This document shows, in pieces, positions 1 through 53,000 of a stretch of DNA of 64,000 bases (positions are counted from its first letter, which is position 1; every line of letters begins with the position of its first letter). Position numbers and translations under genes: made by a program. The notes beneath the pieces were generated by a model. The model had not been told where the DNA came from. It worked only from the letters and a program-made list of their open reading frames with translations, and ran no database searches. This DNA comes from Amoebophrya sp. A120 (Eukaryota; Protista; Dinoflagellata): contig CAJINV010000007.1 of NCBI GenBank assembly GCA_905178155.1, positions 3,143,151-3,207,150 of the forward strand, written 5' to 3'.

Positions 1-3000
1 CCGCGGACGAGGACAGCGAGGGGAGTTTGCCGCTCCGCGACGTGTTGCGCATGCTGGAAGCGGTGTTCTGCAAGTCCGGCCCGTTGACGCAGTGGGACAT
101 CCGGGTTTTGCTGGCCCAGATGGAGTCGGAGCTGCGGTCCGACGGCATCATCCGGTCCGCAAAGCTGGTCACGAAGATTGTGCCGCCGCTCCGGCGCGTG
201 TACAACGAGTCGGTTTCGTTGAAACAAAAACAGATCGCAGCGGCGGCGGCGGCGGCACACCAGCAGCAGCAGCAGGTTGTAGACCACACGAACAATGAAG
301 AAGTGGACCAAGTGATCATCACCGCGGATCAAGTGCAGCAGATGGTGGCGTTGCTGCAAGGCCACGAGCTGACCCTGTTGCACGAGCTGATTCAGAAGAA
401 GTGCGAACCTCTGGCGGACTCCGCGCACCCGGAGTTGCTGCAACGACACCGGTTGAAATTCGTCTTGGACCAGCTGAACACCCGGATCTCGGAGCCGGAG
501 AAGTCTTTACTGCTGCAAATCATGCCCATGCGGGTGTTGTTCCGGTCCCCGGAGGAGGACAGCCCGGTCCCCGCGGACAAGAAGAAAAACAACAAGATTT
601 CCTTCGACATGTATCGTAAGGAAAAGTCCCCCCTCCCCATATCGGAAACGTACCCGTCTGAAAATTTGTGATGCGCATTTGGGACCTCAAATCCTGTCTG
701 TCTTGCCAGAAGGCAAGTCCAGAAAGCGCTCCGCATCCTGCAGGCGGTTTGTGATGCTGTTGGGCTTAGAGCATACGCGTTTGCCATGCTAGGCGCCTAC
801 GCCAACACCTCCCGACTGAGGCTTGGCATATGCCTGCAGTCGTCTCTAGCAAGACAGATCTGATTTGTGTACGCAAATCCAGCATCAGAAACTTCGTTTT
901 GATATGGGGAGGGGGGATTTTTCCTTTTGATAACATGTCACCGAAGTCCAAGGCGGACAACACGTTTCTGAACGGGTCCCTGGACAGTCCGATGGCGACC
1001 GCGAAGCCGAACAAGAAGCGGCCGGTCACCTTCATCAACTTCACGGAGTTCCACGACAATCTGGCCTACCTGCGCGCCGCGCGGACCTTCTACTGGCCGG
1101 ACAACCTGGCGCAGGTCCGCCACTCCCTGATCGAGATCGTGCGGTCGTTCAAAGCGCGGATTCCGATCTGGACCTACCGCGCGCAGGTGCTGGGGCCGTT
1201 GATGCAGCAGAAGCTGGTGTGGCTGTCCGCCGCGGAGCTGTTCGTGATCGGCTGCATGACCCCGGTCACCAAGGATGCCGGGCTGGAGTGCGGCTTCACG
1301 GACATTGAGGAGGCTATCAAATGCAAAAATGTCTGGGTCTGGAAGAGTCATGCTGTTTTTGCATGACACAGGATGTCTGTCCTGGAAGCCCTAGCATCAC
1401 AGATTTCGAGAAGCTTCCGCATTGCTTAATCGGCATTACAAATCCCCCACTTTGGTGACAGGAAATGGACACCTTTTGCTGCCTATGCATGAGAGATTTG
1501 TCTGTGTTGTGAAATGCGCATCACAAGCTCACATCCTTCCAGACCCAGACATTTTTACAATCCATAGAGGCGTTCGACATCCTCTTCTGTCTCGTGCAGC
1601 AGTGGCACGACAAGTTATCAAATGTAAAAATGTCTGGGTCTGGAAACTTGTGATGCTGGGTGGCGTCTCATGATGAGGCTACAAATGCTGGCTCAGCATG
1701 ACAAGTTTCTGAGCTCCTAGGTGTTGCCTATTCTGCATGACAAAGTGCGCTTCTGCATCACAGAAAAACGGAGCTCTTGGGTAACGTGCATGACAGATTT
1801 AAAAGTCATGCCAGACAAGCATGACAAACATGAATTCTTCCAGACCCAGACATTTTTACAGTTGATACAAGGATGCGGTCTACCAAAAGGGGGTCACCAT
1901 GGCGCTGGAGCTGGAAGCGGAGCGGAAGCGGAAGGAAATGGAGGAACTGCAGCAGTTTTCCGGTGCGAGCCCAAAAGCGAGTAACGAGGAGGCGAACCGC
2001 AAGGAGAAGTTTGTGCCGCTGGAATTGCGCGACAACCTGGAAGTGGTGGAACGAGCCCTGATGGCGCAGTTTTCGGTAGCGGATTCGGAACGGAAGGGCA
2101 TGATGCGACAGGACGAGGTGGCGGCGTTGCTGTTGGGTGATTGGGACGTGTACATCGAAGATGGCGGGTTGCTAGACAGTGAGAAGGCGGGGTATAATTT
2201 GCTTGTAGTTGTGAACAACCAGTTTTTTTAGCTTTATTTTTCCTCGGTTTCGGTTTTTGTGCACGATCGATGAAGAAAATCGAATCCGAGCTAGGTTTCT
2301 CATCGTGCCAACACTGTTTATGAGTAAATCGCAACCCCTACGTACCCCAGGTTGCTTGCCATGTGCGAGCCGGTGTTGGACGAAGATGGGAAGCAAACTT
2401 CCTACCTGCGCTACGACGAGCCGGTGAAGACCTTTTTGCCGATCTTGTTCGACATCCGGCAGAACCAGGGCTTTCGGGAGGTCCTCCAGCTGGAATCTCC
2501 CTTGGAGGAGTTGATGACGGAGGAGATCATGCAGCTGCGGCAACTCGGCCCGCTTCCGTATGAGAGTGCACAACTCCACCTCGTCCCCCTCATTTGTCAT
2601 GCAAAACCCCAAATCCAACTGTACTGCTGCCCTGTCGCACTCGCTGCATGACAGATTCTGGAAGGCCAAACAGTATGAATTTGCCATGCACAGGCTCCAC
2701 GTGTGCTGGTGATGGTGTTTGTATTGCTGCTCATGCTTTTCAAATGAGGGGGAGGGGAAGCTGTGCACTTTCATATGCCGACCCGAAAATCCACGACGGG
2801 GCGGCGCAGCCGGTTCTCGGTCGGCGCCGGCGGCGGACCGGGCCGGGTGTCCGGTGTGAGCGCTGCGGGCCGACCCTCGGCCGGGGGTCCGGGCCAGAAA
2901 AAGGGGGTGCGGAGAGTCCAGGAAATCACGATATCAAATGCAAAAATGTCTGGGTCTGGAAGATTCTGAGACTTGTCATGCATGTTTTGCATGACCCAGG

Positions 3001-3270
3001 ATGTCTGTAATGCACGACCTAGCATCACAGATTTTTAGAGGGCTTCCTGATGCCTACTTCGCATGACAAACGCACTCCTGACGCACTACTTAGCATCACA
3101 AGTTCCAACCGTCCAGACCCAGACATTTTTACAGTTGATACACGACCCGGGGCGGCAAACTGATCCCGAAGGTGATCGACATCGCGGCGTTGGTGCACGA
3201 AAGCCGGGCGGACAGGAGAAGGAGGATCGGGTCGGACGCCTGGTCGCAGTTGATTCAGAAAATCAAGTGA
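1..3270 (+). CDS. Multi-exon hypothetical protein, 5'-truncated by the window; weak resemblance to an ET/NET-like helical segment near 315-480
   Basis: Exons about <1-611, 938-1314, 1572-1615, 1873-2191, 2351-2558, 2781-2931, 3146-3270. Removing five TIR elements (each plus one TSD) and a GT-AG intron (2192-2350) joins the listed ORFs into one frame (SFDM|SPKS, IEEA|FDIL, LGPLP|TRKS, QEIT|TRGG), ending KIK-TGA. Confidence 0.8.
612..932. mobile_element. Introner/MITE-like element, family B (321 bp), forming a non-canonical intron
   Basis: TIR tatcgtaaggaaaagtcccccctccccatatc / gatatggggaggggggatttttccttttgata. Perfect 5-bp direct repeat ACATG at 607-611 and 933-937. Excision restores the frame. 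Confidence 0.93.
1315..1566. mobile_element. Introner/MITE-like element, family A (252 bp)
   Basis: TIR tatcaaatgcaaaaatgtctgggtctggaag / cttccagacccagacatttttacaatccata. TSD GAGGC at 1310-1314 and 1567-1571. Excision restores the frame (can be read GC-AG). Confidence 0.93.
1616..1867. mobile_element. Introner/MITE-like element, family A (252 bp)
   Basis: TIR tatcaaatgtaaaaatgtctgggtctggaa / ttccagacccagacatttttacagttgata. TSD CAAGT/CAAGG (4 of 5 match). Excision joins WHDK to the AVYQKGVTMALELE frame. Confidence 0.92.
2559..2775. mobile_element. Introner/MITE-like element, family C (217 bp)
   Basis: TIR tatgagagtgcacaac...ccccctcatttg / caaatgagggggag...tgtgcactttcata. TSD TTCCG/TGCCG (synonymous Leu difference). 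Colinear with the element at 52401-52618. Confidence 0.9.
2932..3140. mobile_element. Introner/MITE-like element, family A (209 bp)
   Basis: TIR tatcaaatgcaaaaatgtctgggtctgga / tccagacccagacatttttacagttgata. Perfect TSD CACGA at 2927-2931 and 3141-3145. Excision restores the frame. Confidence 0.93.
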
Positions 3271-4486
3271 AGATATTCATTGCGGAAAAATGGTGTATTT
3301 GCACCAAAAAAGAAGAAAGAAGATTCGCCAGAAGTTCTGTACAATAAAATAAAGATTTACATTTGTTATAGCACTTTGCTCGAGGTTGTGCTATTTGAAA
3401 ACCTATACGTAAAATTGAAAAAACGTTATTGTATCAAATTTCGCTTGCAGAGAAATGGAAATCTGTAAATCAGTTTTCCGCTCCTGCTCCACGAAGCTGT
3501 ATATCGTTGACGCATTGTATGAAACTTCTTTTAAAAAAGTATCAACTTTTGCTCGTATTACTAACTTCCAAGAATTTGTTGAGGCTGTACAAAAATATGA
3601 CACCAGCACACGACCAGCAAGATTGCACTTGCAATGTAGATACAAGTTGACATCGTTGAGAAGAATGTGTCTGCTTCGACGTCTTTGCTAGATGAAATTA
3701 AAGTTTGAGGATTTGTACCGTAGCGTTGACTCTAAGCGAGAATCAATGTCGTGCCGATTCTCGAAATTGTACCTGTCCTTGTCCTTTGCGGCTACCTATA
3801 AACAAACAACTATCTTACACACTCGAATTGCGCTCCTCTATTCAAAAATACCTTAACCTGTACAATTTACTCCAAAAGAACAAACAGACCCTTCTACGCC
3901 GGCGCACCACACCTGAACAGAATCTCTATTGCCCCAATCGAAAATAAGATTGCAGAACGAAAATTCAAAGAATTTAATAGCCATTTGATCTCCGTGTCCG
4001 TGTTTGTCGACAAATCGTGTCAACAGCGTGTTTCTGGGAATTCTGAAGACAGCTCGAAATAACAACCGTGCTGCTATGGATCAAAAGAAGGCCATCCCAA
4101 AAATTTGCAAAAGGCACAGCTTTCTGGATCAAAAACGCAGCTGAATTTTGATTTTTTTTTTGTGCATCACTACAAGCAACCGAATTATTTGATGTTACAA
4201 GGACCCATTTGCTGGATCAATTTTACGCTCTCGCCTGAATTAGACCCAAACAACCCACAGGAGTGAAACAACATTTGAAGCGCCAAGAACAAGTCATGTT
4301 TTACGGAGCGGTTTTATTCAGTTCCAGCATGTCCACCTGGACGTTTTTCAGCCCTCCTGTGTAGAAGCCGCGCTCGTTTTACTTATTTTTCGAGCAGTGG
4401 CGTTACTTGTATTTCACTACCCTCTCCCCCTCGTTCTTTCCCAGGACGACGACTTTCAGCGACTTTTCCCCATCCGAAAAAAAATC

Positions 4487-6719
4487 ATGACTGAACTGGA
4501 CGACGAGCTGGCTGCGATCCGGGCGAAGCGGCAAAAGGCCCAGGAGACCCAGCAGACCGCCATGTTCACCATTTTGCAGAAGAAGCGCGAGATGGAGGGC
4601 GAGGACCCCGCGGTGTTGGAGGCCAACGCCAAAAGGTTCAAGTCAGCGACGGGCTACGGGCAAAACCCGCCCGAGCCGGTAAAAAAGCACCCGACCGCCT
4701 GGCCCGGCGGGGTGCACCCGGCCATCGCGAGCGTACCGCTGGCCGCCGGCCTGCCGCATTTGACGGAGGAGGAGCGGGCGCAGGGCAAGAAGCTCCTATC
4801 AACTGTAAAAATGTCTGGGTCTGGAAGAGTGCCAGACGTGTCATGCAGGTTTTCCATGACCGATGAGGTCTGGTGTGTAGGACAGAGCATGACAGATTCT
4901 GCGAGAGTTCTATCATGCCTATCCTGCATGAGAAACTGCCTCTCGACTAGGTCAGAAGTTGACAGCTTTTGGCAATCATGCAACACAGATCTTTACATAA
5001 TTCAGATTTAGCATGACAAGTTGCATTCTTCCAGACCCAGACATTTTTGCATTTGATAGCTCCCCACCGACGACGACATGATCCACAGCCAGTACGACGC
5101 GCTGGCCAGGTACGGCGAGAAGGCGGTCACCGGGAACGCGATCGTGCCCGTGGTGGACGGGAACGGGACCGCGGTGGAGGAGTGGCTTACCACCGGGTTT
5201 CAGGCGCAACTGCGCAAGATGGAATCCGCGACCAATTTCAAGCACGGCATGAAGATTATCGAGAAGATCTGGATCCACCGGCACCGGCACATCCCCTACA
5301 AGGAACAGATCCAGCTCTACTCCATCCTGTTCACCAAACCCCTGACGCAGGACCTCATCGTTCACATCGACAAGGCGGGCGGCGACCAGGAGAAAAACGA
5401 CCGGTTTCGGGTCATTCCGAAGCGACTCGTGCAAGACCGGGCACGGCCCACCAGCGTGATGAAGATAAGAAACCGACCACCGGACAAGTTTATCCCCAAT
5501 GTGCCGGAGTGGATCGACGTCATGCACCTCATGAAGCCCATTGAGATCGGGTTGACGCAGAATTTGAAAGAAAAAACCACGGCCGACTTGATCAAAGCAC
5601 TCTACGCGGTGGTGAAGGTACTGATAGGGTTGATGATTTTATTGCGTTTTTGCATCGTGTCATGCGAAGAGGCCAGCACAGGCTGGGCTAGTATGTTGCG
5701 AATTCATTCGGTCCTCGCATGCATGATTTAGATAAGTAAAAGTTCTTCCTTGCACAAATTGAATTTCAGGTCCACCTTCTGGATGTGCCGTTTCAAAATC
5801 GAGCGACCTTCGAGCCAACCAGCGGCGAGAAGAACTGCATGCTGAAGCTCCAAGAGATGCTGAAAAGCAAAACCGCGGCAAATGGCGACGAGCTGAAAAC
5901 CCTGAGTGCCAAGGTGATCTGCATGTTGCTGTACAGCAACAGTCTGATCGCGAACCCGAATTTCATCTCAAATGTCGGCGCGTTGCAGAAATTGGCTCTG
6001 GACAAGGGACTGATAAGGTATATAGTACCTCAATGTTACTGCTTGCCTTTCGATCTTCCTATGTTGATCCGTTGTGTTTTTCGTCCCATTGCACATAATT
6101 GCAATTGCTCGTTGCAGAAGCAGCTTCATGTTGTCCGTTTGTTATTTATTTCATACAGTGTTCATTATTTCAATCTGAAACCAACAGAACCTTGTACCAC
6201 GACGTCGTCCGCGGGCAGCAGATTGCAGACATGGAATCTGCGCAGGTGTGCGAGCTGGCCTATGCCGTGGCGAAGTTTAATCAGCTGTACACACAAACGC
6301 TGGCCAGCAAGAACGATCTGTCCGCCGCCGCCGGGCTGGGGATTGCGCACCGGGAACCGGTGGAGGAGCAGGTGTTCAACAAGATCTCCGAGAAGATCCA
6401 GATGAGCAAGGACTCCATCAGTTTGAAGCATTTGGCGGACATTGTGTCGGTGTACGCCCTGTTCGGGCTGAAGGACGAGCAGTTGTTCCACTCCCTCGCG
6501 CCCATTTTCCTGACGGAAAAGGCCAAAGGAAAGCTGAACGACTTCGACTTCCAGCAAACGCTGAAGGCCTACATCAAGTTCAACCTGCCGCTCCGGGAGG
6601 AGGCGCAGGGCTTCCGGAACATCGCGGTCATCGGCAAGGGCGACTTTACCCGGCCCAGCGACAAACCAAAAAAGGAAAAGTTCGCCTACCACAGGCCGGA
6701 GCCGCTGCAGGACAGATGA
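4487..6719 (+). CDS. Hypothetical protein with C-terminal helical repeats (HPR/RAP-associated-like), possibly organellar RNA-binding
   Basis: Exons 4487-4796, 5064-5617, 5770-6017, 6188-6719 (one introner plus two GT-AG introns) give a continuous frame (KKL|PTDDD, VVK|VHLL, LIR|TLYH). The segment LKHLADIVSVYALFGLKDEQLFHSLA resembles helical repeats. Function is tentative. Confidence 0.7.
4797..5058. mobile_element. Introner/MITE-like element, family A (262 bp)
   Basis: TIR tatcaactgtaaaaatgtctgggtctggaaga / tcttccagacccagacatttttgcatttgata. Perfect TSD GCTCC. Same length as, and colinear with, 51206-51467. Confidence 0.94.
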
Positions 6720-7440
6720 GGCCGCGTTTGGTGGTGGTCGGCAGGCAAGCAGTTCTTGGCGCGGAGTGGCTTATTTGGTTTTCGACGATGAAGACGAAGA
6801 CCCGGTGCCATTTCGTTCCTGTGTAGATAGTCCTCTGCTCCGCACATCAGTATCAGACGACTGCAGTTCTGTATTACGGAACAGTGAATGTTGTTGGAAA
6901 AACTACGCGATTTATCAGAAGCAATGCGTCGCCAGCTGTGATTTCTACAGCAGTTTTCACTGAGGAGTTCTTGCTCTGTGTTCCTACTCGTGCTTGATGT
7001 TTACCCGATATCCTGGATCTCTGCGGAGTATTTGCAGCTTTTTCAGTACACAATGCTATATTGTTCATCTGCTGTTCAAATTCACTGCGGTAAGGGACCT
7101 CCTGCGGCGCTGCGCGCGAGCCCAGGACGCGGCTGCCCCGGCATCTGGTGGTAACGCGAACGCCCGCCGTCGCCGGGGCGACGAGGCGCATCTCGGGCGG
7201 ACCGGCGGGGCGTGTCCTTTTTCAGTTCGCAGCCTGACAGCATACGCCGTCTGCTTTCGTTAGCGGTCAAGCGGGATGTTCGTTTGTACTTACCAATCTG
7301 GAAGGCAAGGTTTTTTAGCGCTCTCTGAAGAGTACACTTGAAATACTCGGCGTCTCTACTACACTAAGCCGCAGTCCGCGCAGCTCTTACTGCGACTGAA
7401 ACAGTTCAAGCACATTTCGTCTACGAGAAGTATCAACTAA

Positions 7441-8217
7441 ATGTCCCCGCTTCCCGTCTCAGAGCCCGCACTCACCACGTTCCCTAGCGACGACGAACTT
7501 TTCGCAGCGGACAACTCCCCGCTTGCACCCAGTTTCGGAACCGCTGCCGTCCGCGCATCTGCTGAGAGCCAACATATCGATACTCGCCCCCCTGACATCC
7601 TCCAGCAGAATGCGGTGTCGGACGAGAGGTATAGTCGCAGTCTTCCAGAAGTACCTGCTGTAACTGCTTCCGGTGCTGGCCAGGTTCTAGTTGACGACCA
7701 GCAATCTTATCCTGCGCCAGGAGTGACACAACGGCAACCGCAACCGCACCCATCGAAAAATGTCCAGAAGCTCGCGGAGGTGCTTTTTCAGAAGCTAGAC
7801 CGCGCGAGGCGGGAGAACGCCAGCCTCGCGCTGCTTCTTCTCACCGATAGAATCCGGGTGTGCAGGGAAAGGAGGCTCCGAGAAGGGTTCGGTCGGATTT
7901 TACTCTATAGCCGTGGCTCTCCTGCTCTAGCTGCGTTCACCTCGTCGAGCACGGATTCTTTCTGCAAAGAGGAGCGAAGAAATCTTGGCAAAGTCGTGCC
8001 AGGGCGGGCGCCAGATGGGGGTGTACAACGACTGACGGATGAAGCAGACATGAACACCGACGTGGAAATGCAGGACGGCACCGAGACGAGAAGCACGACC
8101 TGCGACTCCCTGCAGTTAATGGACAAACTGACGAAGTTAGTGGACGGGTTCTCCGAAGAACTGACCGAGTATCGCTATTTGAACAAGAACACAGCGGGTT
8201 TTGGTGGGAGACGCTGA
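7441..8217 (+). CDS. Hypothetical protein (probably the 5' exon of a longer gene that may continue to about 10219)
   Basis: 258-aa ATG-started ORF with a helical, charged central part. No family recognised, and the 3' boundary is uncertain. Confidence 0.5.
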   Translation: MSPLPVSEPALTTFPSDDELFAADNSPLAPSFGTAAVRASAESQHIDTRPPDILQQNAVSDERYSRSLPEVPAVTASGAGQVLVDDQQSYPAPGVTQRQPQPHPSKNVQKLAEVLFQKLDRARRENASLALLLLTDRIRVCRERRLREGFGRILLYSRGSPALAAFTSSSTDSFCKEERRNLGKVVPGRAPDGGVQRLTDEADMNTDVEMQDGTETRSTTCDSLQLMDKLTKLVDGFSEELTEYRYLNKNTAGFGGRR

Positions 8218-9337
8218 GGATAATGAGAGCCAAAGCGCTTATTTCTCACGTAGAAAATAAAGTTGGACAAAAAGCTGCAGTGTTGAGTCGCACAACAAAT
8301 TTTGAAATTTGAAATGAAAGCGAAAATGTGGATCAATTCGTACTGCTTGGAAGTGTTTTCCAAGAAGAATCAATTTGCTTTCCTGTGTAAAGAAAAAGAA
8401 ATACTGGAGACGGCGAGCGCCAGCGGAAATAGTATACGGGAGGGCGGCATGCTTGATTTTTCAAAACTTGGCCGTGGCAGCTGCCCAGCCTGGCCCGGCG
8501 ATTCTCGGCTCACTGCGTGCCTTCTGTGCGCGGTCAACATGCGGGTTTTCGCTTGCTTGCTTCCGGCGAATGCACGTCCGTGTTGTGTGCTGCTATCCGG
8601 CAATGCCTTTCCCGGCTATCCGTTCGTAATTCAGCTCGAGCTATTTTTACTGCAGGCGTCTCTCTCGTTGAGGCCGTGTACGCGCTGAGGCGGGAATTTT
8701 AGGATACAGCTTTGGAGAGTTGTCCTGTATCATAGCCACATTGTTTTATTGAGGGCAACTCTCTGCACTCAGTCTCTATTCTTGTATGGCCATGTTTTCG
8801 AAGTAGGCCTCTGCTCTTCTGCTTCTGGTTTGCCTCACACGTCGCTGTTCGTGAAAAAAGACATTCGTATTCTTTTACCGGGCGCGGTGCTTTCGTCAGA
8901 GAGGACACAGAAAATACTGCTACAAACTATACATAGGTGAAGAATAAATATAAACATAAACTACGTGGTTGATAGAAGTTGTGCAACATTGAATAGTCTA
9001 CCTCGTAGACAAAGCACATTTTTGATCTGGAACAACAGAGAGAAGGGGGTCGTCTTCAATACATGTCCCCAAAGTGCCGGATCGTGGCTAGTGACGTGAA
9101 ATACCCTCGTCGAAAAATTGAAACCGGTATGCGTTAGTCCGTCAGCTCTGCGTCTATACGTTGCAACTGCGAAAGTCACGGAAAGCAAATGCGAGCTGTC
9201 TGACTCTGGACAGAAACTGTTTTGAGACTGCAGCACTAGAAATCGTTCAAATGTTAACTTGCGAACAATTTCTCCAAATCAGTTTTTTTTTTCGTACCGG
9301 AAAACTATCTGTTTCTGTGCTGCTCGCTGCAACGTAG

Positions 9338-11476: not shown

Positions 11477-12137
11477 ATGCCGCCTCGAAAAAAGAATAAA
11501 AGTAGGAATCTTTTTTTCTTTACCTCTGTAGTGTGAAAATAAGCTGACGACGCCGAGAAGGGCGAGAACAGCAACAAGAACTTGCGGGAGGCAAGAATTC
11601 TTATGCTCGCAGATATTGGTATCAAAGATCAAAAGGTGATCATGTATATGAGAAGTTTCCAAAAATTGAGATCTCAACAATGCCCGGCATTAGTCACTCG
11701 ACACCACAGGGCAAGCGCAAAAAGTGTCTTGCAGTGCGGCTGACTTGATATGGGCGAAATCTTGTTGTTCGCATTTGAAGCGGAGTGCCGCAACAGCAAG
11801 AACAAAATGAATTAGGAACTCAAATGAAATCAGTTCAGATTTCTATCGCATGCAACGTTCTTTCCGAGTGAAGAATGTGAAAGTCTGGAGAGAATCGGAA
11901 GAAAATTCTGTTTCGGTTGGTTATGAAGCAAACGTGATCAACCGTTGTCCTCGCAGATCGACCACAAAATGTCACTCTGAAGAGAAAGATCATACTATGT
12001 TCGAAATCGAAATGCAGAATCAGCAATTTCCACGATCGTCTTGGCCTCTTTCGATGCTGATCGAACCGATTTTTATTCCTGGCTCGAAGTCGAATTGGTA
12101 TTCGCTGAAATTGGTATTCGCTGCAGCAAGCTTGTGA
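11477..12137 (+). CDS. Possible small spliced hypothetical protein
   Basis: ATG 11477 MPPRKKNK, a short GT-AG intron (11502-11543), then TDDAEKGENSNKNLREARILMLADIG. Downstream exons are ambiguous. Confidence 0.3.
12093..12123. repeat. Tandem duplication of aattggtattcgctg (period 16)
   Basis: Identical 15-mers at 12093-12107 and 12109-12123. Confidence 0.8.
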
Positions 12138-27805: not shown

Positions 27806-29663
27806 ATGGGAATCCTGTCACAAATTCCACCGTTGCAGGACCATCTGGAAGATGCGTTTTCTGCGCTTACGATACAGCAGCAGCCGAAGCAATCCGTGGC
27901 CGCAGCGCGAAGAGTTGGGTTATACAACGGGAATGTAACCACGAGCTTTGTTGTTGAGAACCACTTACAACGCAATTCGGCCGCCACGCATAATAATCCT
28001 TCATCCTTCTACGCAGCAACGTTTCATCCTCCTGCCGCACCAAGTGACACAGGAGGAGATGGAACAACCCTGCAGTTTCCCTTCTCATCCTCCTCCTCCC
28101 ACCAGCGACAGTTCCTCAACTTCCCCACCCACGGCTCCTTTCACACGCGGCGCACGTTCTTCACGCCGGAAGACGCGCTGCGAGAGGGCGAAAGCTGCCC
28201 CACCTGTGCGTGCGAGGGGTGCCAGACGGCCTTGGGGAGCAACGTGGGGTCGCAGGCGATTGAGTGCCCGAACGTGCCCCACCACAGCAAGGATCCGGTG
28301 GTGTCGAAAGCGTTATGGTACAGCCGCCTGGTGTTCATCTTTTTTGCGGGAATATCCTTGGGCGGCTACCTCGCCTTCTGGATTCGGGGACGGCAGGTCA
28401 GGAAGCGGGCGCAGTTGATGGACGACGACGGGGAAATCAAGCGGGTGGACATGTGGGTTGACGACGACGACGAGTCGTCGGACGAGGAGGGCATGAGCGC
28501 GGGCGATTTCTTCATGAATCTGTTCGGCGCCCCGGTGAAGCTGGCGAACGCGATGATCGAGCAGGCCACCGGGGTCAGGTTGTTGCCGGATTCCGTTTAA
28601 GCATTGCAAATATGTCTGTGCTCTTTGGAAGCATGCAAGGCTTGTCATGTTCGGTTAGCATGACGCTCAAGTGTCGTGTCTCTGCACACCACCCAAACGA
28701 ACTACTTTTCTGTCATGCAGGATCTACTTACGCAGTTTGTTGCCAGTCAGAGCAACACTCAATGTCAACACCTAGCACCTCGAAGACTTCTTGTCATGCT
28801 TCGCTGTTAATTGAGGTATCAATCCTCGTGATTCTCGTATCAGCAGGACAAGTTTGTTCCGGACCAAGGCGTATTTGCAATCTCCATACCGTCACGGAGA
28901 AGGTGCGGTTTTCGTTCCGCGATCGGGATATCCTTGAGCGGACCGACTTGACCGATATGGAGAAGGCGTTTTTGATAATGAAAGGCGACTACGAGGAGCA
29001 CATGGAGCTCAGCGAGCGGGAAAAAGCCATTTTGAAAGACAGGTATTTATAATAGGCCGCATATAGAAATTTCATTTGCTCAAAACCGTCCGCAATGCAA
29101 AAAGAAAAACTTAACAAGAAAACGTACTGTTCGAATAAAAATCATCAATCAGGTCCTTGACGGACATGGAGAAGGCGTTTCAGATGACCCGCGAGATGGA
29201 GGAGGTCAACCTCCCGGGCCACATGTCGGACATGCAGAAGGCCTTCCGCGAGCTGCAGGTGGACATGGGACTGCGCCCGGCGGACGACGGGGGCGTGATG
29301 GGGGCGCTGCTCGGCGAGGACGAACTGAGCAAGAAGCTGAAGGGCAAATCCGACATGGAGAAGGCGCTGGCGCTCCAGCTGAACGCGATGGGGGTGGAGG
29401 AGGAAGACCTGACCAGTGACATGCAGAAGGCCTTCAACCACGTTGCTGCCAAGTACGGGCTGGCGCCGGGCACGACCGAGGATGACCACGCGTTCGATGA
29501 GGACGGGAACCGGAAGAAAACGAAGAAGGAGGGCGGCGTGTTCGGTATGTTCGAGGAGGTTTTTGGGAAGTCCGACATGGAGCAGGCCTACGAGGAGGTC
29601 GCGGCCAAGGTGGACAAGAAGAAGAAAAAGAAGAAGGGGCTGTTTGGGGGCCTGTTCGGGTGA
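27806..29663 (+). CDS. Single-pass membrane protein with a Cys cluster and repeated (S/T)DM(E/Q)KA(F/L) motifs
   Basis: Exons about 27806-28597, 28894-29042, 29153-29663. Junctions PDSV|TEKV (introner) and KDR|SLTDM (GT-AG). TM segment LVFIFFAGISLGGYLAFWI. The start is uncertain. Confidence 0.72.
28598..28888. mobile_element. Degenerate introner element (291 bp, family E, distantly A-like)
   Basis: Imperfect TIR taagcattgcaaatatgtct / aggcgtatttgcaatctccata. TSD CCGTT/CCGTC (synonymous Val). Internal tgtcatgc motifs. Excision removes the TAA stop and restores the frame. Confidence 0.78.
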
Positions 29664-36116: not shown

Positions 36117-38738
36117 ATGTCGTCGCAGCCGCCAACCCCACCGCCCGCGGCCGCGACTCCTCCTGTGCGGGCGGAGTCTCCGCAGCTGGAAGATTTCATT
36201 TCCGACCGGGAAGTGAACAAGACCATCGGGAAAAACAACATTTTCCGCACGCTGTGGTGCAACATTTTCCTCTATCGCAAGAAAAAACTGTTTCACTGTC
36301 AACTTGTGATGCATAGAACGGAATGCAAATGTGTTTGTCTTGCTACACATGCAAGACATTGGATTTTTAGCTGTGTTTTCCCTTGAGAAGCGCGCATGCC
36401 CAGTTTTCTTTGTCATGTGTAACAAACTTGTGATGCAGATCTTGCAAAATCATCACAGTGAAGCAGTTTTTTCGTGGGATATCCTCGTGATCGGGTCCAC
36501 GATCACGTTTGGACCGGTGTTTGACAAGTACATCCTTCAACTTTCCGACAAGAATTGGGTGGTCGGCGTCGTGGAGTCCGCCTCGGGGATGACCTCGTTA
36601 CTGGTGTTCGTGCCGGTGGCCTACCTGGTCGACCACGTGTACGGCCCCCAGGACCGCGCGCGCCTGGTTCGCAACAGCGCGAACTTACTCTCCGTCGGCG
36701 TGGTGGTGTTAGTGTTTGCCATTCTGTTTGATTCCTTCTACCTGCTCTTCCCGGCGTTGTTTCTGAACGGCGTGTTCTACGAACTCTTTTCCTCCGCCAC
36801 CGAGGCGCTGTTTGCGGACTCGGCGGGTGTCACCGGGGACCGGGCGGGCTGGTACGTAAAGAAGCAGGTCTACATCACCATCGCCGCCGGCGTGGGCCCG
36901 CTGATCACCTTGCTCTTGGCATTTGCGGATAACAAAAATCATCTTCTTGCCCACGGAGGTTTGTCTTATGACAATCCGATGAATTATGCGGACGAGTCGT
37001 GGCCTACTGACCACAGGTGGGACATCAGCACAGCCGGGGGAAACGTTCATCATTTCGATGATGGTTCCACACCAATATCGGGCCCGTTTGCGGTAGCTCC
37101 AACCGGTAGTTCATCGTCGTGGCACATGTTCAATCCGTTATTTTCCAGATATCAGCTTCCAGGACCAGCTTTACGAATGAGTGCAGCTGCGGCCTCATCC
37201 GGCGGTACAGAAGAGATAAGGTCACCACGTCCAGCAGGTGCGATTATAGCGGGAAAAATAGAAACTGCTTCTGTTTCAGCCTCTTCCCGGTCTTTACTAG
37301 AACGCAACAGCGATACTAGCACAACGCTTGCTGGCGCCGGTGAGATGCTTCTGGGAAGCGGTGTTCTTGGTGTCCAGCGAGCGATAGGAGACGCTGCTGG
37401 CGCGGGGGCATTGAAGACTCTTCCATCGACACCATCTGAGGAGTCGAGCACTACAACGATGGTCGCTGGTAATCCTTCACCTTCGTTCTTCAGCGATAAC
37501 TTCTCCTCCAGCACTTGGACCTTATCGTGGATGCACTTCATTCTGCTCTCCGGCGTCGTTCTGTTCGCCCCGTTGTACTGCTTTCTCTACGGGTATCGGG
37601 ACCTGATCCAGGAGCAGGATGTCGAGGGGAACCAGAAGAAAACCGAGGACGAAGTGTTTACGACGAACCTGACCCGCGGCGAGAAGTGGATTCCGTACCT
37701 GTGCGGCCTGAGCGACTTTGTCGTGTCGATCGGGGCCGGAATGACGGTGAAGTTCTTCAACCTCTTCTTTATTCAGGACTACCACTTTCAGCCGTGGCAG
37801 ATATCCCTGCTGCAGACCGCCTACCCACTGACCATCGCGGTTTTCACGATACTACTCGGCAAAATCGCGAAGTACTGCGGCCGGGCGCAGACGAGCGCAT
37901 GTACTTCTCACTTTTACTCGGAGATCGTTAATACGTGCTGTTGTTTCGTAAAGGGGTGATGTTTCGTAGGCTTTGGAGTTTGAAATTTTTCCTGTACGGA
38001 CTGAACTGATAACAGCGGAGCACATTATGTTAAACAAAAAGATAAAAATGAAAATCCACTTCCCAGTCGCCTTCTCCCTGAACGCGCTGTGCATGATCCT
38101 CCTGGCTCAGCTGCAGGACGTGCGCGTTTTGCTGGCAATCTTCCTGATTCGGGGCGGCATGGCAAACGGCGTCGCGCCGCTCGACCGGTCCATTCTGATG
38201 GACTACACGCCGTCGAGTCAGAGGGGAAAGTGGAACGCCGTGGAGAGCTTCACGAGCATCACCTGGAGCGGGTCTGCCTTTTTGGGAGGCTACATTGCCG
38301 ACGTGCAGGACTATCGGTAAAGTGCTACTTCTATGCTTTCCTTTTTACAGGACTTTTTCGCACAAGTTCTGGCTGTGTGTTGTTCGTTTTCACAAATAGA
38401 CCAGAATGCTATCGCATGCTATCAAGAATGACTTCGTTTTACCAAAACCCAGGCAAACGTTCCGCTACACCGGCTTCATCTATCTGGTCGGGACCCTGAT
38501 CTATTCCCCACTTCTGTTTCTCGTTCCAAGGAAGGCAAAGAAAGATTCTAGTGGCAGCGGCACTGCAGCAAGTACCGAAGCAGGTAGTGGAGCTGCAGGC
38601 ACGCTACTCCCATCGGAGCCTGCGGAGCTGGAGAACCCTGTTGATAGTACAGCTCCAACATCACAGTCTTCTACTTCTCGCGGGGAGCCTCTGTTGGTCG
38701 TCAGGGGGCGCGCACTGTCGCGAGACTCGGATCATTAA
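36117..38738 (+). CDS. Major facilitator superfamily transporter
   Basis: Exons 36117-36272, 36487-37900, 38067-38316, 38453-38738. Many TM helices and MFS-like motifs (AYLVD..G, ILMDYTPSSQRGKWNA, GGYIAD). One introner plus two GT-AG introns. Confidence 0.88.
36273..36481. mobile_element. Introner/MITE-like element, family D (209 bp)
   Basis: TIR tatcgcaagaaaaaactgtttcactgt / acagtgaagcagttttttcgtgggata. Perfect TSD TCCTC. Excision gives NIFL|VIGSTITFG. Confidence 0.92.
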
Positions 38739-39331: not shown

Positions 39332-42300
39332 ATGTTGTCTCTCTTCATTCGCCCTAGCCGACTTGTTGGGAAGCACCAGCGATTTCTTGTCAGTGTCGCA
39401 CGCACGAAGAGGTCAGTGGAACAGGATGACGCCAGCAGAATCGGGGGCTCGTGCCACCAAGAAGAGTGTGCCATGGGAGGTCATCCACCGGAACAAGCAG
39501 CGCCATCGCTACTCGCACCGGATGAAACATCTTCAGCCGGCGCAGTCGTCAAAGTTGGGCGAGGAGATGCGACGACCCCAGCTACGGCATTCGCACACCT
39601 GGAGCCGCTGCGCAGAGAGCGTGAGAGTCAGACTGCGGATCCCGACCTGCCGACACCCCTGACGGAGTTCCAGATAAAGGCGCAGAAAGATGGAACCTAT
39701 CCGGGCTCCTTCGAGAACCAGCCGGAAGCCCCGCACGAGGTGGTCTTGCAGTTCCACGAGAGCGGGCCCCAGTGGGTCCCTCGGAGTCAGGTGTATCCGG
39801 AATTTTTTTCCGGGAGTGGGGACAGAATAAACGGTTGCGGAGACGCCAAAGAACTCACATCTTCTGATGTGTGCTCCGCAAGATTAGCAGCGAGTGGGGA
39901 TGAACCGGAGCAACAGAAAGGGATCCAAGTGTCAGCAGCTGAAACAAATGCAGAGGCAGGAAAAGTGGCTTTGCTCGCCGATAGAAGACAGGGTTCTGCA
40001 CCAGATGAGTTGTTATCCAGCACTCGCCCAACTACAACTTTACCCAGTGCGGCCGCGACTGCTTCCTCGTTGCAGAAGCCTGTACTTCATCCCATAATTT
40101 CTGATTACCCGAAGAACCGAGGGCAACTGCAGCCCAGGCTTTCCGAGTACGCGACGACGCAGCACTTTTACCGCAACGAGCTCCGGTCCTGGTACTGGCA
40201 GCGGAAGCAGGGCACGAAGTACCAGCTGTGGTGCCCCCCGGGGGTGGTGTTTGCGAAATTGTGGAAGTATCACTATGATCCCGGGCCGCAGCAGGTCCCG
40301 CCCCTGGAAAAGTGGTGGTTTCAAGATTCCGCGCGGGAAGGACAACAGGACGAGGATCACGATGGGGACGAAGCCCCCGCTTCTCGCTGCTGGGACTTCG
40401 CCGAAGACGCGGACATGGAGTATCAGTTTCACCGGAGACCAGCGACTGGGCTTGGAGTAGTTGTTTCCACTGCCGAGCAGGGACAACAGGAAAGTTGTTC
40501 TTCATCTTCTGATATACCTGCTTTTGACTATAGCGAAGATGGGGAAGGCAATAATCCTGACGCGGGTGTTGACAATGCTGAAGATAGTGGATACGCGGCG
40601 AGTAACGCACTCGGAACGGACGAGGAAGCTAGTTCACGAGAACGATCGAGCAAAATTGAAATGCCTGAGCAGCATCGAGAGCGGCCGCAGCACACACAGG
40701 AGGCGCAAGATGTTGAACTGCGGGACAACTATCGAAAACCCCTTCCTGAGCAGAATGTGGTCCCCACAGCACCTGCCTCCTCGTCGCGCTTTCATTATTC
40801 TAGATCGCATGAAAATGCAAATGGAAATGCCAAGGAGAAAACCTCTATCTTTCAGCGAGCGGAAGTTGCTTTCGACAGAGGTGGTCATGCATTGATGAAC
40901 GAAAAAATTATATCGAGCGGCACCAAAACCAATATCCCGGTAAACTTGGTGATTGGCGGCGGCACCTGGGCTGTGGCCACTGCTAAAAACACGCCACTGG
41001 AAAATTTCGTGCAGTTTGAGTCGAACGACGCAAAATTGTTTGTCTCCGTGTATATCAAAAGGAAAAATGCCCCCTCCCCATATCAAAACGAAAATCTGTG
41101 ATGCAGATTTGTGGCCACAAATCAGCTTTGTGATGCTAGAATGCAAAAGATGCGGACTGTAGTGCTGTCTAGCGTGGAAAAGCCTTGCAGCTCCAGGATG
41201 ACAGGAGGCAGCTGGAAGTGGGAAACAGCATGACAGACCACCTGCAATTTAGGCCGCAGCTTCGTCTCTTGGCCTTCTAGCAATACAAGTCGATTTGTGT
41301 ACTCAAATACAGCATCACAAATTCGCGCATCTTCCGTTTTCGATATGGGGAGGGGGGATTTTTCACTCTGATAGTGTGCCGTGCCTTTCAAGCCTTCGAG
41401 GGCAACCGGTCGGGCTTGCTCAGTCTGTTGAGTGGTGCTTCTTCTGCCGAAGATATGCTGGACCAGCAGGAGCACCAATTTTTCGAAAACCTTCGGTTCG
41501 TCTTCACCTGGCCTTGGCTTGCGCACCGTTTTCTCCCAAAGCAAATAGTGAAAAAAGCTCATCTGCACTTCGTGGACGAATTCGAGCTCGAGGACTGTCT
41601 GCCAGCACTGTTTCACGTGTTGAAACCGAATGGCACGATCAGCTTCACGTTTGAGAACAAAGAAAGCGCGGCGGCCGCTCTGCGGGAGGTGCTGCTGAAG
41701 AATTCCACGGTGAGAAATTTGATGCAGGGCGCAGCGGGCGCGGCGTATCCCGATCATGGGGCGACACGAACTCAAGGCACGGACAAACACGGAAGCTGCA
41801 AAACCAGCTCTTTAAACGTGAAGTTCGAGTGTCTCACGGTGTCGCAAAAATGCCGAAAGGACCAGAAATTAGCCGAGAGTTTGTTGAAAACGAAAGATGT
41901 GTCCAAAGCCGACGACGAATTTCTTGTCGCGCTCTTCTGCGAACGTGTTTTCGATCCGTTTTTGCAGGCTCCGGCCCACCGGGAGAAGAAGACCGGGGAC
42001 CGGGTGCGGTTTAACGCGCGAGTCGAGGACGTCGTGCAAGACGAAGAGTTCATTGCGACGACGCCCTGCAGAAGGGGGAAACCCATGAGCGGATACTGGC
42101 GCAGGAAGGAGGGTCATGCTGGTCCGGCGGTCGTGATGTCAGACGAGCTCGAGAACGAGGGAATAAACGGGCAACATGTTGTCGAACAAAGTGCAGTAGA
42201 ACAAGATGGTTCTTTGGTAAAGACGACAGAAGCTTCATCTGCGGGTGGCGGTGCTGTAGCGAGTGCAGCAGACAAAAAAGTAATGACCGCAAATGAACAG

Positions 42301-43150: not shown

Positions 43151-45829
43151 ATGCCAGACGAGTCTAAGTCTGCATTTGTCCTGCCGCTCTCCGAGCTGCA
43201 GGCGATCCAGCACCGCATTCTCCCGGCAGAGCAGGTAGAGGATTTGGGTAGGAAAAGGGCTCTGAAACTGCACGAGAACAGCAAAAAGCGCGCGGGCACG
43301 TGGACCAACACACTAGAAGGGTCAAGAAAAGCAAACATAGCCGCAAGACAGCTTAGGCTAGATGCGGAGGAGGCAGGTACGGAGTACACTTGTTGTGGAT
43401 CATGATAAGAATGATAAACCACCTTCGATCATAGGTCTTCTTCCTCTACAATGTGAAAGACGCCTGTTTCTGAAACAGGCACCAGCAATAGAAGTTCAAT
43501 GCTATAATCGAAAACCAACATTAAAACAGAGCGTCAGAAGCTGGATGAGCAGGAGGCCGCCATCCAATTAGAGAACCGTAGAAGAATAATCGCGAGGGCA
43601 AACAGATTGCTGTACGACGAGTCCGATAGAATGAAGTCCTTCCACTCAAAAATGCAGTACTCGGACTGTCTAGCGGAGCGAGAAGCTCAGGTGCAGTTGA
43701 AGGATGAGCTGAGCAGGTAATCTGATGACTTTCTGGTGCACGCAGTACAAATTAATAAGGACAAACAGTAACTGAATTGGATTTCGTGTAAACGTCCTTA
43801 CCTCGGCAGGCCAGTACAAGTGTGACAGAATTTGCATCTGAAACACAATCTCAAGCTTGTGTTGAATTTCTTTGAGCCGAACAACCACTTACATGATTCA
43901 CAGGTTAGAGCAGATTCGGGAGGAGCGATTTCTGGATATCGAGAAGCACAACTACCGAAAAATGCTGGAGCGTGAACTGCGCGAGAAGATGGAATATGAA
44001 GACAAACTCGGCAAAGCAACGGTGGTCCAAAAGCAGCAACTGTTGGAGGCAAAAACAAAGCGACTCGCGTTTATCGAGGAGGACATCTTGGAGGGTACCA
44101 CTTATGATGGCACAATCATCTTCTTCGCACTTGGCGAATGCATGAAATTGAAAAAAGGAAAAGAGCAGGGGAAGACGTTTGACCTCAGAACGACGACAGA
44201 TGGCGCTGCATGGTGACAGAATAAAAGTTTTTTCGTCTGAGAAAAAGTGGCCAAACGAAAATTTCTTCAGGTGAGCTCCTCCGCAAGAAAGCCGCAGAGG
44301 ACGCGGAGCAGGAGCGTAAGAACATTTTGAAGAGACGAGCCGAGGCCACTTTGGCACTAGTGGAGACGCAGAAGGCAAACGCGTACCTGAAATCTTGCCG
44401 GGAAGAGGACGACAAGAGGAAAGATAGGGAACGTATTTTTGATTTTTCGATACTGCTGTAGCTGTGCCCGCATGCCAATTTCAATTATCATAGCTTGCCG
44501 CACATGTTGAGGGCTTCCTGCATTTCATCAAACGCCGCATATGATTTTATTTTACAAAACCTCAGAGCGCAAAATCAACGAATACGCTGCGGACAAAGAG
44601 CGGCAGATGCAGCTCCGCAAGGCCCGGCTGAAAGAAATCCACGACAACAAGATGGAGATTCAGAACCGGCTGATCGAGAGGCAAGCTGCGCAGTTGAAAG
44701 CCGCAGCGAATGCCGAGGACGCGAGAATCGAGGGCGAAGTACTGCAGAAGCAGCTCGCGGACGAGAAAAAGAGGCTAGCGAAGGAAGCCAGATTACAGCA
44801 AATGGCAGATGACGTAAAGATGTTTTTTGATTGAAAGATACTCGCAGTGTAGAAGCGTAAGCGATAGGAAATGCAGCTTCACTGTGTAAATCTATCACGA
44901 AATTAGCAGATGAACCTAAGCTCACTTAGATGAATTACTTTTAAAATCATTCTGATTTTTGCGTATTTCAGGTAGACAAGAGTCGGCAGCAGCAGATTAA
45001 GCGCAAGGTGCTGCAGAGACAGACGGAAAAGAAAGAGGAGGTTGAGATGACACAGTTCTGGTCGCAGTGGTGCAAGCACTTAGGTATATGTTTTACGACA
45101 ACTAGCTGCCTCGGTGCTTGTATACGAACTTGCCGTGCATCAGACCGCATCATTTTCATTATGGAATGAAATCGCAGGCCCCGTCTTGTGGTTTTTGTCA
45201 TGCGTCTTTCTGCAAACACCTTCAACCGCCATGTTTACATAAAAAACGACATTTTTTGACACTGCTTCTATTTAACAGAAAACGAAGAGCGGCAAGAGGA
45301 GGGGCTGAAGTTCGAGGCCGCGAAGAAGCTGCAGGCGGAGCACCGAAAACAAATGGCCCAGAACAAAACCAAACGGAACCACGACCGGGAAACGGAGCTG
45401 TTGGTGGTGGAGAAGGCGCAGCAAGCCATCGAGATGGATTCGCTATCGAATGAAAAGATGTCTGGGTCTGGAAGGTTGCAACTTGTGATGCTGTGTGTAA
45501 ATTCTAAAAAGATTTGTATTGCATGAGCAGCAGCAGGAGGAGGAGTCCAGTTTGTGTTACGCGGGGAGGGCATTTCTCATGCGGAATCGGCATCAGGAAG
45601 CCCTCTAAAAATCTTTGATGCTAGGTGATGCATTACAGGCATTCTGGGCCACGCAAAATATGCATGACAAACGTGGCAATCTTCCAGACCTAGACATATT
45701 TGCAGCTGATATTCGCTAGAGTACTACAAGTACGCGGAAGCAATGATCCGCGAATACGCGGAGGATGGCAAGAACGTCATCCCATTGATCAAGGAACTCA
45801 AGGAGTACCGGAAACGGGAGGGGATTTAG
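43151..45829 (+). CDS. CFAP210: Cilia/flagella-associated coiled-coil protein, CFAP210/CCDC173-like
   Basis: Exons 43151-43376, 43530-43716, 43904-44094, 44271-44432, 44566-44813, 44972-45083, 45279-45443, 45717-45829. Motifs WTNTLEGSRK, ANRLLYDESDRMKSFHSK..SDCLAEREAQ and C-terminal GKNVIPLIKEL. Long E/K/R coiled coil. Confidence 0.78.
45444..45711. mobile_element. Introner/MITE-like element, family A (268 bp), inverted relative to 2932-3140
   Basis: TIR tatcgaatgaaaagatgtctgggtctggaag / cttccagacctagacatatttgcagctgata. Perfect TSD TTCGC. Excision gives EMDS|LEYYKY. Confidence 0.92.
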
Positions 45830-50022: not shown

Positions 50023-53000
50023 ATGGAATCGCCGATCCTCCCCCTCGAGGGGAGTCCCTCGCGGACGATTTTACCGACGCCCGACCGCCTCCACGCTTAC
50101 TCTCTCATTACCTACGAGCCGCCCGAGGGGAATGGCCAGCGGGTCCGGGCGCAGTTGCTAATTGACGAAATTTTCCCTACGATAACCGATTTACCGCAAA
50201 TAAAGAATTCCGGAGCTACCGCTGGTGGCTCCTCGTCCTCTACTTCCAGTAGCGCTTTTTTGCTCTCCTCACCGAAACCCGGAAATAGGCAAACAGGGTT
50301 GTTCTTTGCCGCAGCTTCTGCGGGGGCCATTGTATCAAAAACAACCGCAGTTGTCGACCAAAATTCCCCTCCGCCGTCTCCGCCGGGCCTCGTCGTTGCA
50401 ACCCGAGCCCGGACCGTGCAGGATCTGGTCGCCAAACGCGCAAGACAGCGGTTTTGCCGGGAGAAGTGGCAGCAGTGGCGATTTGCGTACTCACAGTCGC
50501 GGTACAGCAAGGCGAAGCAGAAGCTGGCGACCTCCCTCTACAACGTCCGCGTACTGAAAAAGGCGATTTTGAGCTGGAAATTCGCCGCGTGCGAGCTCCC
50601 GACGACGCAGCTCCTCGCCGTGGAAGTTTCCTATTGCGAGAAATCGATTGCCCTGCTTCAACTCTGCCTCGACGAGTGGCTGAAGCAAGCGATCGCGGAA
50701 AAATTTCTGAAGCGGCCGGAGCTCTCCTTCGTGAACCTGTTCCAGTCGCGGAAGAATGTCCTTCTCTACTGGACGGAGTACGTGAAAAAAAAGAAACACC
50801 TGGAAAGGGCGGAGAAACTGACAAATATCCGGGTAAACCAGTCCCGCGTGCGCATCTGGTGGCTGGAATTCGGCTACCACCGGACCCTGCGGGTGAACTT
50901 GTTTTTGCTGCAAAAACTGACGCTTTCGCTCTGGCGGAAGGAAACGGTCCGGGACTCCAAGATCGTGAAGTCGTTTCAAGAACGGTGGTCTTACTTCAAC
51001 TACTTCAGCAACTTCTTGGAGTTCCTCTGGAACGGAATCCTGGATAAAAGAAACCGGGCGCGCATCCACTTCACGAAACGACAGAAGCGGGAGATTGTGA
51101 AGGCGTGGCAAACCTCGGCGTGGATCGCGAGACAGACGCGGAGGTTCACGAAGTTAGCCTCGGTGTTTTCCTCCTCGACCGTGATGCGCAACGCTTTCAA
51201 CCGGTTATCAAATGTAAAAATGTCTGGGTCTGAAAGGTTGCAAGACTTGTCATGCAGGTTGTCCATGATGCGCGAGGTCTGTCATACACGACCTAGCATG
51301 ACAGATTCTGTGCGACCTCTATCATGCCTATCCTGCATGAGAAATTGCCTCTCGATTAGGTCAAAAGTGGAAAGCTTTTGGCACTCATGCAACACAGATT
51401 TTTGCATGATTCGGATTTAGCATGAGAAGTTGCAATCTTCCAGACCCAGACATTTTTGCAATGCATACCGGTGGATCCAGTACCACGAGCAGTTCCAGTT
51501 CTTCGCGCAGCAGCGGCAGAAGGCGGCAGCGCATCACAACCTTGTCGTGTTCAAAACGGTGGGGAAGAAATGCTTGAAGGAGTGGGGCAAGCTGCTGAAA
51601 TTCGTGCAATCTGCAAGGGACAACGCGTTTCTCTTAGGCGAGAAGTCCAACGAGGACAGACTACAATTCACCTTTGAAAACTGGGTGCGGGCAGTGGAGG
51701 AGCTGAAGCACGAGCGCGAGTTGCTGAAGATCCTGCGGCGGGTGGAAACGCGGTTTTTCGTTTTACCGACGTTGGAGGCGTGGCGGAAGTTCACCCGGGA
51801 GGAACGACTCGGCAAGCACTTCGCACTACTCGCATCCGAATTCTCCGAGGGCACAACGTTGCGGCTAAACTTTACCACTTGGAGGACGAACGTGGTCGTG
51901 GAGAAGAGAGTGCGGGTGCACCGGGAGATGTGGCAGAACTTCGCGATACGGAGGGGGTACGGGAAGCGGGCGTTTTACACGTGGGAAGAAAACTTGAGAG
52001 CCCAGAAGAAAGTCCTGCAATTCTGTATTGTGGTTATTCTACTAGTCGTTTTCTTTCTGTTTTTCATCTTGAAACCGCATGAATTCCAATTCGATGTCCA
52101 ACTGTACTACTTACAAAGAAGTTCACATTACAACAGCCCGCCTGATCGCCTCCGGCAACCGCGAGACGTTGTTGAAGCTGCACCTGCTCGAGTGGCGAAA
52201 GTACGCAGAGGACCAGATTCAAGAGCGGCACCAGGAAGAAGTCGCGAAGGAGTACCAGAAGCGGTTTGTCGTGCAGAAGTACTTCGAGATCTTCGTGGAG
52301 ACGATCAAAAACGACAAGAAATTGAAGCACCTCTGCTCCGGCCTGATCGCGCAGTTCGGCGCCGGTCTGCAGCAGAAATTCTTCGACGCCTGGCGCAAGG
52401 TATGGGAATGCACAACCCCCCCTCCCCCTCATTTGCCATGCAAAATCCCAAATCCAATGGCGGCCTTGTGGCACTGTTTGCACGACAAATTTTCGAAGCC
52501 CAAACAGTACTCTACACGAGAAGCATGAATTTGTCATGCATAGGTTCCACGTGTGCGGATGTTTGTGTTGCTGTTCATGCCATGCAAATGAGGGGGAGGG
52601 GGGTTGTGCACTCTCATGCAAGGGGGTGAAGCTGAAGAAGCAGGACATGGAGAACGTCGGGAAGGGGGAGATGCTGGTGCAGAAACTGTTCTGTTGGAAA
52701 CTTTTCCGGCTTTGGAAAGAGTCGTTTTTGCTGCGTTTAAAACTGAAAGCGAAATTCTTCGAGTTCCACGAAAACCACCACCGGTACTTTGTGCTGCTGC
52801 ACACGATCAGGAAGTGGGAGAAGAACCGGGAACTGTCGGAAAACCACCGGAAGAAGTACACGAAAGCGGGCACCTTCCGGGTGGAGTGGTGGGGCTTCCG
52901 CCCCTGGAGACTGGCGGTGGAGCAGGCGAAGCGGTTGGCGTTTGGCGCGAAGTTCCTGGCAGAGAACAACGCGGGCTACTGTTTGCTGCAAGCGTTCAAG

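Follow-up and report, generated by a model that had tools for sequence, protein, structure and literature searches.

The window considered here comprises 64,000 nucleotides (nt) of the dinoflagellate Amoebophrya sp. A120 (contig CAJINV010000007.1, positions 3,143,151 to 3,207,150 of the forward strand), and its coding exons are interrupted by twelve short elements with terminal inverted repeats (TIRs), each flanked by a 5-bp direct repeat that we read as a target-site duplication (TSD). These elements are very probably introners of the Amoebophrya A120 type, removed at the RNA level, and they are likely to represent non-autonomous DNA transposons that are cut from the pre-mRNA, a transposon nature for which their anatomy speaks. 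Elements of this kind have already been published as the A120 introner class; the feature is thus a known one, and its value as a discovery is low. What is new in this analysis is the position of the cut: if all elements share one register, two imperfect TSDs bracket it to after TSD base 2-4, that is, inside the duplication.

All twelve elements lie in coding exons, with their host frames on the + strand. Five of them interrupt gene 1, at 612..932 (321 bp, TSD ACATG at 607-611 and 933-937), 1315..1566 (252 bp, TSD GAGGC), 1616..1867 (252 bp, CAAGT/CAAGG), 2559..2775 (217 bp, TTCCG/TGCCG), and 2932..3140 (209 bp, CACGA); one is found in gene 2, at 4797..5058 (262 bp, GCTCC), and another one in a gene for an MFS transporter, at 36273..36481 (209 bp, TCCTC). 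The others are located at 28598..28888 (291 bp, CCGTT/CCGTC), 41053..41373 (321 bp, GTGTA/GTGTG), 45444..45711 (268 bp, TTCGC), 51206..51467 (262 bp, CCGGT), and 52401..52618 (218 bp, CAAGG). Those at 28598, 36273, 45444, 51206, and 52401 are described from sequence only. An earlier sequence-only reading of the window had given all twelve starts correctly, together with the length range of 209-321 bp, and the ends have now been set. A scan for inverted ends with flanking repeats gave ten of the twelve, the elements at 28598 (end 28888) and 52401 (end 52618) being set by hand; in its strict form it returned ten elements in the real window versus one in total over 30 shuffled windows. Neither BLAST with related elements and the twelve themselves nor a relaxed scan revealed a 13th copy in the window.

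The TSD measures 5 bp throughout, and is perfect in eight elements and carries one mismatch in four (1616, 2559, 28598, and 41053), the same counts as in the earlier reading. The TIRs, formerly put at about 27-36 bp, extend over roughly 26-38 bp, mismatches included, and the one at 28598, which had been called degenerate, is shifted by a 2-nt indel. Termini of the TAT...ATA type are typical, with the exceptions of 28598, which starts with TAA, and 52401, which ends with ATG. An inverted repeat motif consisting of TAT, seven variable nt, and at least three A is present at both ends of 9/12 elements; of the remainder, 2559 and 52401 belong to a TATG..TGCAC subfamily, whose members differ from the motif, and in 28598 the motif is degenerate. 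Three related pairs occur within the window: 2932 and 45444 are 87% identical in opposite orientation, and 51206 and 4797 are 84% identical in a shared one. The predicted folds are very stable, with -109.5 kcal/mol (z -8.5) for the element at 1616 and -124.2 kcal/mol (z -10.2) for that at 4797. A scan of the window against Rfam gave no match, and neither did a search of viral contigs with the TIR pattern. As a side observation, the subterminal motif GCAT[GC]A[CG]A is found 40 times in the 3082 nt inside the twelve elements versus eight times outside, which makes it a candidate transposase-binding repeat.

The removal of the elements is seen in four RNA-like contig sets (X1-X4, from two samples of one study), compared with positions 1-6800 at 99% likeness. 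In all four runs, the contigs skip 326, 257, 257, 222, 214, and 267 nt at the elements starting at 612, 1315, 1616, 2559, 2932, and 4797, respectively, which is at each of the six sites exactly the element plus 5 nt and no other letters, as the sequence-only reading had expected of the transcripts. By the coordinates of the records, exactly 43 and 149 nt remain for the two short exons, and therefore nothing lies between the joints. The absence of GT-AG introns from their contigs is the reason for treating these sets as RNA, the 'RNA' label given by the tool being a guess, and the public annotation may have been built on the same data. Three ordinary GT-AG introns on the + strand, which serve as controls, are missing from the same contigs: 2192..2350 (donor GTATAA, 159 nt), 5618..5769 (donor GTACTG, 152 nt), and 6018..6187 (donor GTATAT, 170 nt). 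Thus, these contigs are spliced transcripts. Farther along the window, the public A120 protein at 41053 is the product expected after removal of the element plus 5 nt. In the contigs of the DNA run X5, the flank continues into the element and the ordinary introns are kept; 22,810 contigs of this run match positions 1-12000, which is not a copy number. Two RNA runs in the form of raw reads, X8 and X9, match element ends only, with no coverage of the host genes, and are uninformative on splicing here. In X8 (2026, same species label), the reads at 4976-5058 carry a diverged element end on other flanks, which suggests a copy that is retained or unspliced in a different strain or at a different locus.

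Two of the sites covered by RNA have an imperfect TSD and show which copy survives. At 1616, the joint is confined to 1609-1614: base 5 of the left TSD is lost and the right copy, encoding Asp, is kept, in agreement with protein P0001, which reads HDKDAVY. The cut must therefore fall at or before TSD base 4. At 2559, the joint is confined to 2555-2558 and base 2 of the left TSD is kept, placing the cut at or after base 2. The annotated protein at 41053 likewise carries base 5 of the right copy (Cys). Given one register, the 5' cut is likely to lie after TSD base 2, 3, or 4, within the duplicated 5 bp rather than at the edge of the element, although this bracket from two RNA sites is a lead and no proof. 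None of the six RNA-covered sites offers a GT-AG register, one offers GC-AG and one AT-AC; among all twelve elements, only 52401 (GT-AG, with a cut after TSD base 4) and 1315 (GC-AG) have a GT/GC..AG register available. Sequences resembling splice sites within some TIRs (GTAAAA and TTTTTACAG) were rejected as such, since the transcript joints lie elsewhere. The wider sample described below does not fix the register either: the TSD mismatches at bases 1-5 number 12, 7, 5, 9, and 7 over 164 oriented elements, with no asymmetry, and among the amino-acid-changing mismatches inspected by eye, with no further search made, none occupied a position conserved enough to show the surviving copy.

The reading frames of the host genes agree with the transcripts. 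A kept element brings in an in-frame stop in 12/12 cases, and removing it together with one TSD leaves an open + strand frame in 12/12, as had been proposed; all twelve junctions score as coding-like, versus 369/676 background windows. Of the host genes named in the sequence-only reading, the MFS transporter was recovered (Pfam match in the exon that follows 36273, with E 9e-10), whereas CFAP210 and the Sfi1-like gene were not confirmed: Pfam gave no match to either on the pieces tried, and left P0001, P0004, and the majority of the exon pieces with no family assignment. The assignment to A120 is supported by a 196-residue exon of the window that is 100% identical to CAD7956079.1, a protein whose record carries the name Amoebophrya sp. 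A120. Orthologues of gene 1 occur in strains AT5.2 (54% identical) and A25 (46%), and neither protein has an element-sized insert at the five sites of this gene. An empty site in DNA with a single TSD copy, as anticipated for related strains, was not seen.

A 20-base TIR motif extended the sample to at least 151 stretches (at least 149 loci), all of them in assembly JACKZZ01 among the matches listed. The nearest match to the RPB1 of this assembly, at 86%, is a EukProt protein. Calling the elements by their ends alone, with the TSD unused, gave 242 unique copies among the matches listed, of which 194 have a perfect 5-bp TSD, 30 match at four of five bases, and 18 at three or fewer; a perfect repeat of 4 bp occurs once and one of 6 bp never. 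Where both flanks are independently coding-like, removal of the element plus 5 nt keeps the frame at 67 of 69 sites (202 scored). Four copies of 262-972 bp interrupt conserved blocks of RPB1 with 4-16 stops each, and in each of them +5 is the best removal among +3 to +7. Because RPB1 is interrupted, removal must happen in the cell. The preference for exons is strong but not absolute: coding-like sites make up 200/222, versus 2300/4052 background windows, and AT-rich sites 14/222, versus 1213/4052. The earlier claim that ordinary introns are free of elements thus holds within the window and fails outside it, given these 14 AT-rich sites and one copy in a GT-AG intron of RPB1. The latter is a 240-bp element (L072:6530-6769, TSD GATAG/AATAG) a few bases inside the intron, so that two kinds of intron are nested. 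In another nested case, a perfect TSD flanks a 1031-bp element (L065:3991-5021) that encloses a second complete element (~4319-4598).

For the analysis of orientation, 233 copies with at least three TSD matches were considered; an orientation could be assigned to 164 of them, and the other 69 were left out. Relative to the host gene, related pairs share their orientation in 883 cases and are opposite in 909. Since both orientations work, the signals for removal must be symmetric and located in the ends. The fixed 5-bp TSD, the TIRs, and this indifference to orientation argue for DNA transposition, and short, non-coding elements with TIRs and a TSD of fixed length, found in either orientation, correspond to miniature inverted-repeat transposable elements (MITEs), or non-autonomous TIR DNA transposons. 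The claim of the sequence-only reading that non-autonomous transposons are rendered harmless by precise removal from the transcript stands for the removal, at six of six sites, and depends on anatomy for the transposons: no autonomous element and no transposase was found in the at least 149 loci, and five elements of 457-1031 bp have no convincing open reading frame by eye. One of 972 bp in RPB1 (L072:5014-5985), likewise with no convincing open reading frame, is a possible deletion derivative of an autonomous parent.

The closest known system is that of the A120 introners themselves, which the earlier reading had mentioned in general terms and which match exactly. Farhat 2021 (PMC7789003) reports 29,850 copies in A120, with a repeat of TAT, seven variable bases, and three A, direct repeats of 3-5 nt, and an average length of 240 nt for the non-canonical introns, whose removal is supported by RNA and which form a hairpin. 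The elements of the window share the organism label, the inverted repeat motif, the direct repeats, the RNA-supported removal (at six of six sites, mostly at non-GT-AG ends), and the hairpin; they are, moreover, dispersed repeated copies in strain-specific positions, as judged from the orthologue proteins, and show no difference in kind. In that paper, the direct repeats have 5 bp in the legend to Fig. S19, and the border is undefined in the legend to Fig. 3; in the present data, by contrast, repeats are strictly 5 bp long, and the position of the cut is narrowed to after base 2-4. Among 38 of the 58 A120 rows of Gozashti 2025 (PMC12130899), most are classed as TIR DNA elements, and one family, fam38, is noted as Ginger-like with '5-bp TSD, TA/TA termini'. 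The window elements share this class, the 5-bp TSD, and the TA ends, and the listed lengths of 209, 252-261, and 319-321 bp match window copies, the families being compared by description with no copy assigned. However, fam38 has ~810 bp and Copia-integrase-like homology, whereas the window copies have no open reading frame of note. The text of that paper describes the A120 element as lacking Ginger termini and TSDs, whereas its dataset files fam38 as Ginger; with TAT..ATA ends and no transposase found, we do not file the window elements under Ginger.

Transposons that leave as introns are known from other lineages. The MITE-derived introns of Fritillaria borealis (PMC11282704; bioRxiv 2025.08.15.670264) are TIR/TSD transposons that also exit with no GT-AG ends, and the U2 spliceosome is needed for their removal (bioRxiv 2025.08.15.670264). 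Their ends are mostly AG-AC or AG-AT, whereas those of the window elements come from a random TSD, for which dependence on the spliceosome would be an analogy. The nonconventional introns of euglenids (PMC11282704) share a TIR stem joining the ends, TSD-like repeats, and an undefined mechanism, but they have a pyrimidine/purine consensus at their ends and exit as circles, neither of which is shown for the window elements. The introners of Micromonas, Aureococcus, and Polarella are likewise non-autonomous DNA transposons, turned into introns by co-opting TSD bases, and use GT/GC-AG; such a register is available in only 9/164 related elements here and in 2/12 in the window, so that by their ends the elements do not fit the canonical U2 introns. 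A review of non-canonical splicing (PMC13149111) leaves Amoebophrya unmentioned, and our literature search, whose coverage ended short of subscription journals and bioRxiv supplements, yielded no paper resolving the removal mechanism or register in A120.

As for the enzyme, we consider the chances about even that it is a relaxed spliceosome, freed from the GT-AG requirement and using an N-UAU donor. Integrase-like DDE transposases would insert the element through a 5-nt staggered cut. A 5-bp stagger fits such enzymes and is consistent with fam38. In the transcript, the element would be cut in one fixed register within the TSD, after base 2-4 and most probably after base 4, where the intron would start with N-UAU, equivalent to the host's own GUAU donors minus the G, and its 3' border would lie 4 nt downstream of the AUA that closes the element. 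In place of an AG, the 3' cut may be fixed by the element's symmetric ends or by the hairpin they form. The donors of the three RNA-verified ordinary introns are GTAT, GTAC, and GTAT, and the seven RPB1 introns inspected by eye all start with GTA, four of them with GTAT. In the register after base 4, intron starts read N-T-A-T and 52401 becomes a plain GT..AG intron; this register lies within the RNA bracket and, with host donors GTAT/GTAC, counts for the spliceosome. The spliceosome is further favoured by the precedent of Fritillaria and by the U1 small nuclear RNA, which has been found in strain Kv, with its canonical introns, but not in A120 or A25 (PMC12005148). In A25, the repeats start with TTA and the commonest non-canonical introns with TT, again N-T-A (PMC7789003).

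Several points weigh against the relaxed spliceosome and the single register. The end dinucleotides are at chance level, with no trace of selection for those that the spliceosome prefers: GT..AG at register 4 occurs in 3/164 oriented elements versus 3.4 expected, and GT/GC-AG in any register in only nine. As both orientations work, there is no strand-specific branch signal in the element body, and pairing in a stem of ~30 bp would hide the donor. TIR mismatches on the transcribed strand amount to 114 G-U and 137 A-C, counts that give no hint of selection for pairing at the RNA level and weaken the positioning by a hairpin. An unbiased, noisy intron predictor gave GTAT in only 6/20 cases. The nine commonest A120 ends in Table S4 of Farhat 2021 all start with NT and fit register 4, but such starts can stem from the preference of aligners for these placements, and they were rejected as independent proof. 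The same paper calls the cut sites variable (PMC7789003), and our bracket depends on two RNA sites and the assumption of one register. The RNA evidence consists of contigs derived from complementary DNA (cDNA) of one study, and no transposase was found in the JACKZZ01 loci listed.

A possible, though less probable, alternative to the relaxed spliceosome starts from the same transposons and assigns their removal to a nuclease that reads the TIR ends or their hairpin, cutting 1-3 nt ahead of the stem on one side and 2-4 nt beyond it on the other, which adds up to five, with an RNA ligase joining the exons, by analogy with tRNA/Ire1-type splicing or the euglenid introns. Cut-site sequences at chance level, the irrelevance of orientation, the very stable hairpins, and copies of up to 972 bp in RPB1 are what such an enzyme would lead us to expect, and the euglenid TIR/TSD introns exit as circles with no lariat, according to the review PMC11282704. 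On the other side, the pairing signature on the RNA strand is absent, the TAT at the element ends is the triplet found at positions +2 to +4 of ordinary donors in this host, and the lack of a detected U1 in the element-bearing strains points to a changed spliceosome; there is also no candidate enzyme in hand, no search having been aimed at one. With the same reserve, A120 might possess a second, non-spliceosomal system of nuclear pre-mRNA splicing, in which transposon ends are read either way, a sequence-blind staggered cut is made inside the TSD, and the exons are ligated with no scar, making tens of thousands of transposons harmless even in RNA polymerase II.

The two remaining explanations do away with splicing altogether. 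Excision from DNA in a transcribing life stage, by precise microhomology repair across the TSD, would also remove the element plus one TSD, and the life stage behind the DNA run X5 is not on record. We hold it to be improbable, since the unitigs of X5 cross 9/12 flank-element junctions in positions 1-12000 without stopping at the TSD (pieces 1-640, 909-1337, 1844-2595, 3118-4822, and 5034-9685), with no common empty form in that run, and a lineage with no separate germline would presumably lose the excised copies; as a test, X5 is limited by contigs that drop rare variants and by most joints being unlisted. Alternatively, reverse transcriptase might jump over the repeat-flanked hairpin, giving rise to 'falsitrons', in which case the mRNA would keep the element and the genes would be dead or the ribosome would hop between matching codons. 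Hairpins with short direct repeats are a known substrate for such jumps, in up to 70% of cDNA reads (PMC8240250), and all the RNA evidence, here and published, is cDNA-based. Nevertheless, this artefact appears very unlikely: it would leave 4-16 stops in RPB1 and five breaks in gene 1, which is conserved across three strains. In addition, the product at 2559 keeps base 2 of the left TSD, whereas an enzyme stalled at the base of the stem would be expected to copy the right one, and 10/32 imperfect TSDs, in which the codons enclosed are not the same at their first two letters, speak against hopping between matched codons.

The literature that we found leaves open by what means A120 removes ~30,000 introns whose end dinucleotides are arbitrary, and a cut inside the duplication narrows this question. 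Since imperfect TSDs mark the surviving copy, existing genome and RNA-seq data could settle the register across the whole genome. If the cut follows base 4, this would point to a spliceosome that reads neither G+1 nor AG, whereas another or a floating register would point to a new cut-and-ligate enzyme; either outcome bears on how transposons turn into introns.

With regard to the insertion sites, the TSD starts at the third codon position in 6/12 window elements and in 84/164 oriented copies, which together with register 4 gives phase-0 introns and may reflect a target preference. The convincing coding frames of the window (1-64000) all appear on the + strand, which fits reports of gene clusters with a shared orientation in Amoebophrya. 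Exons that by eye resemble an H+-translocating pyrophosphatase are found at 21850-23948, free of any element.

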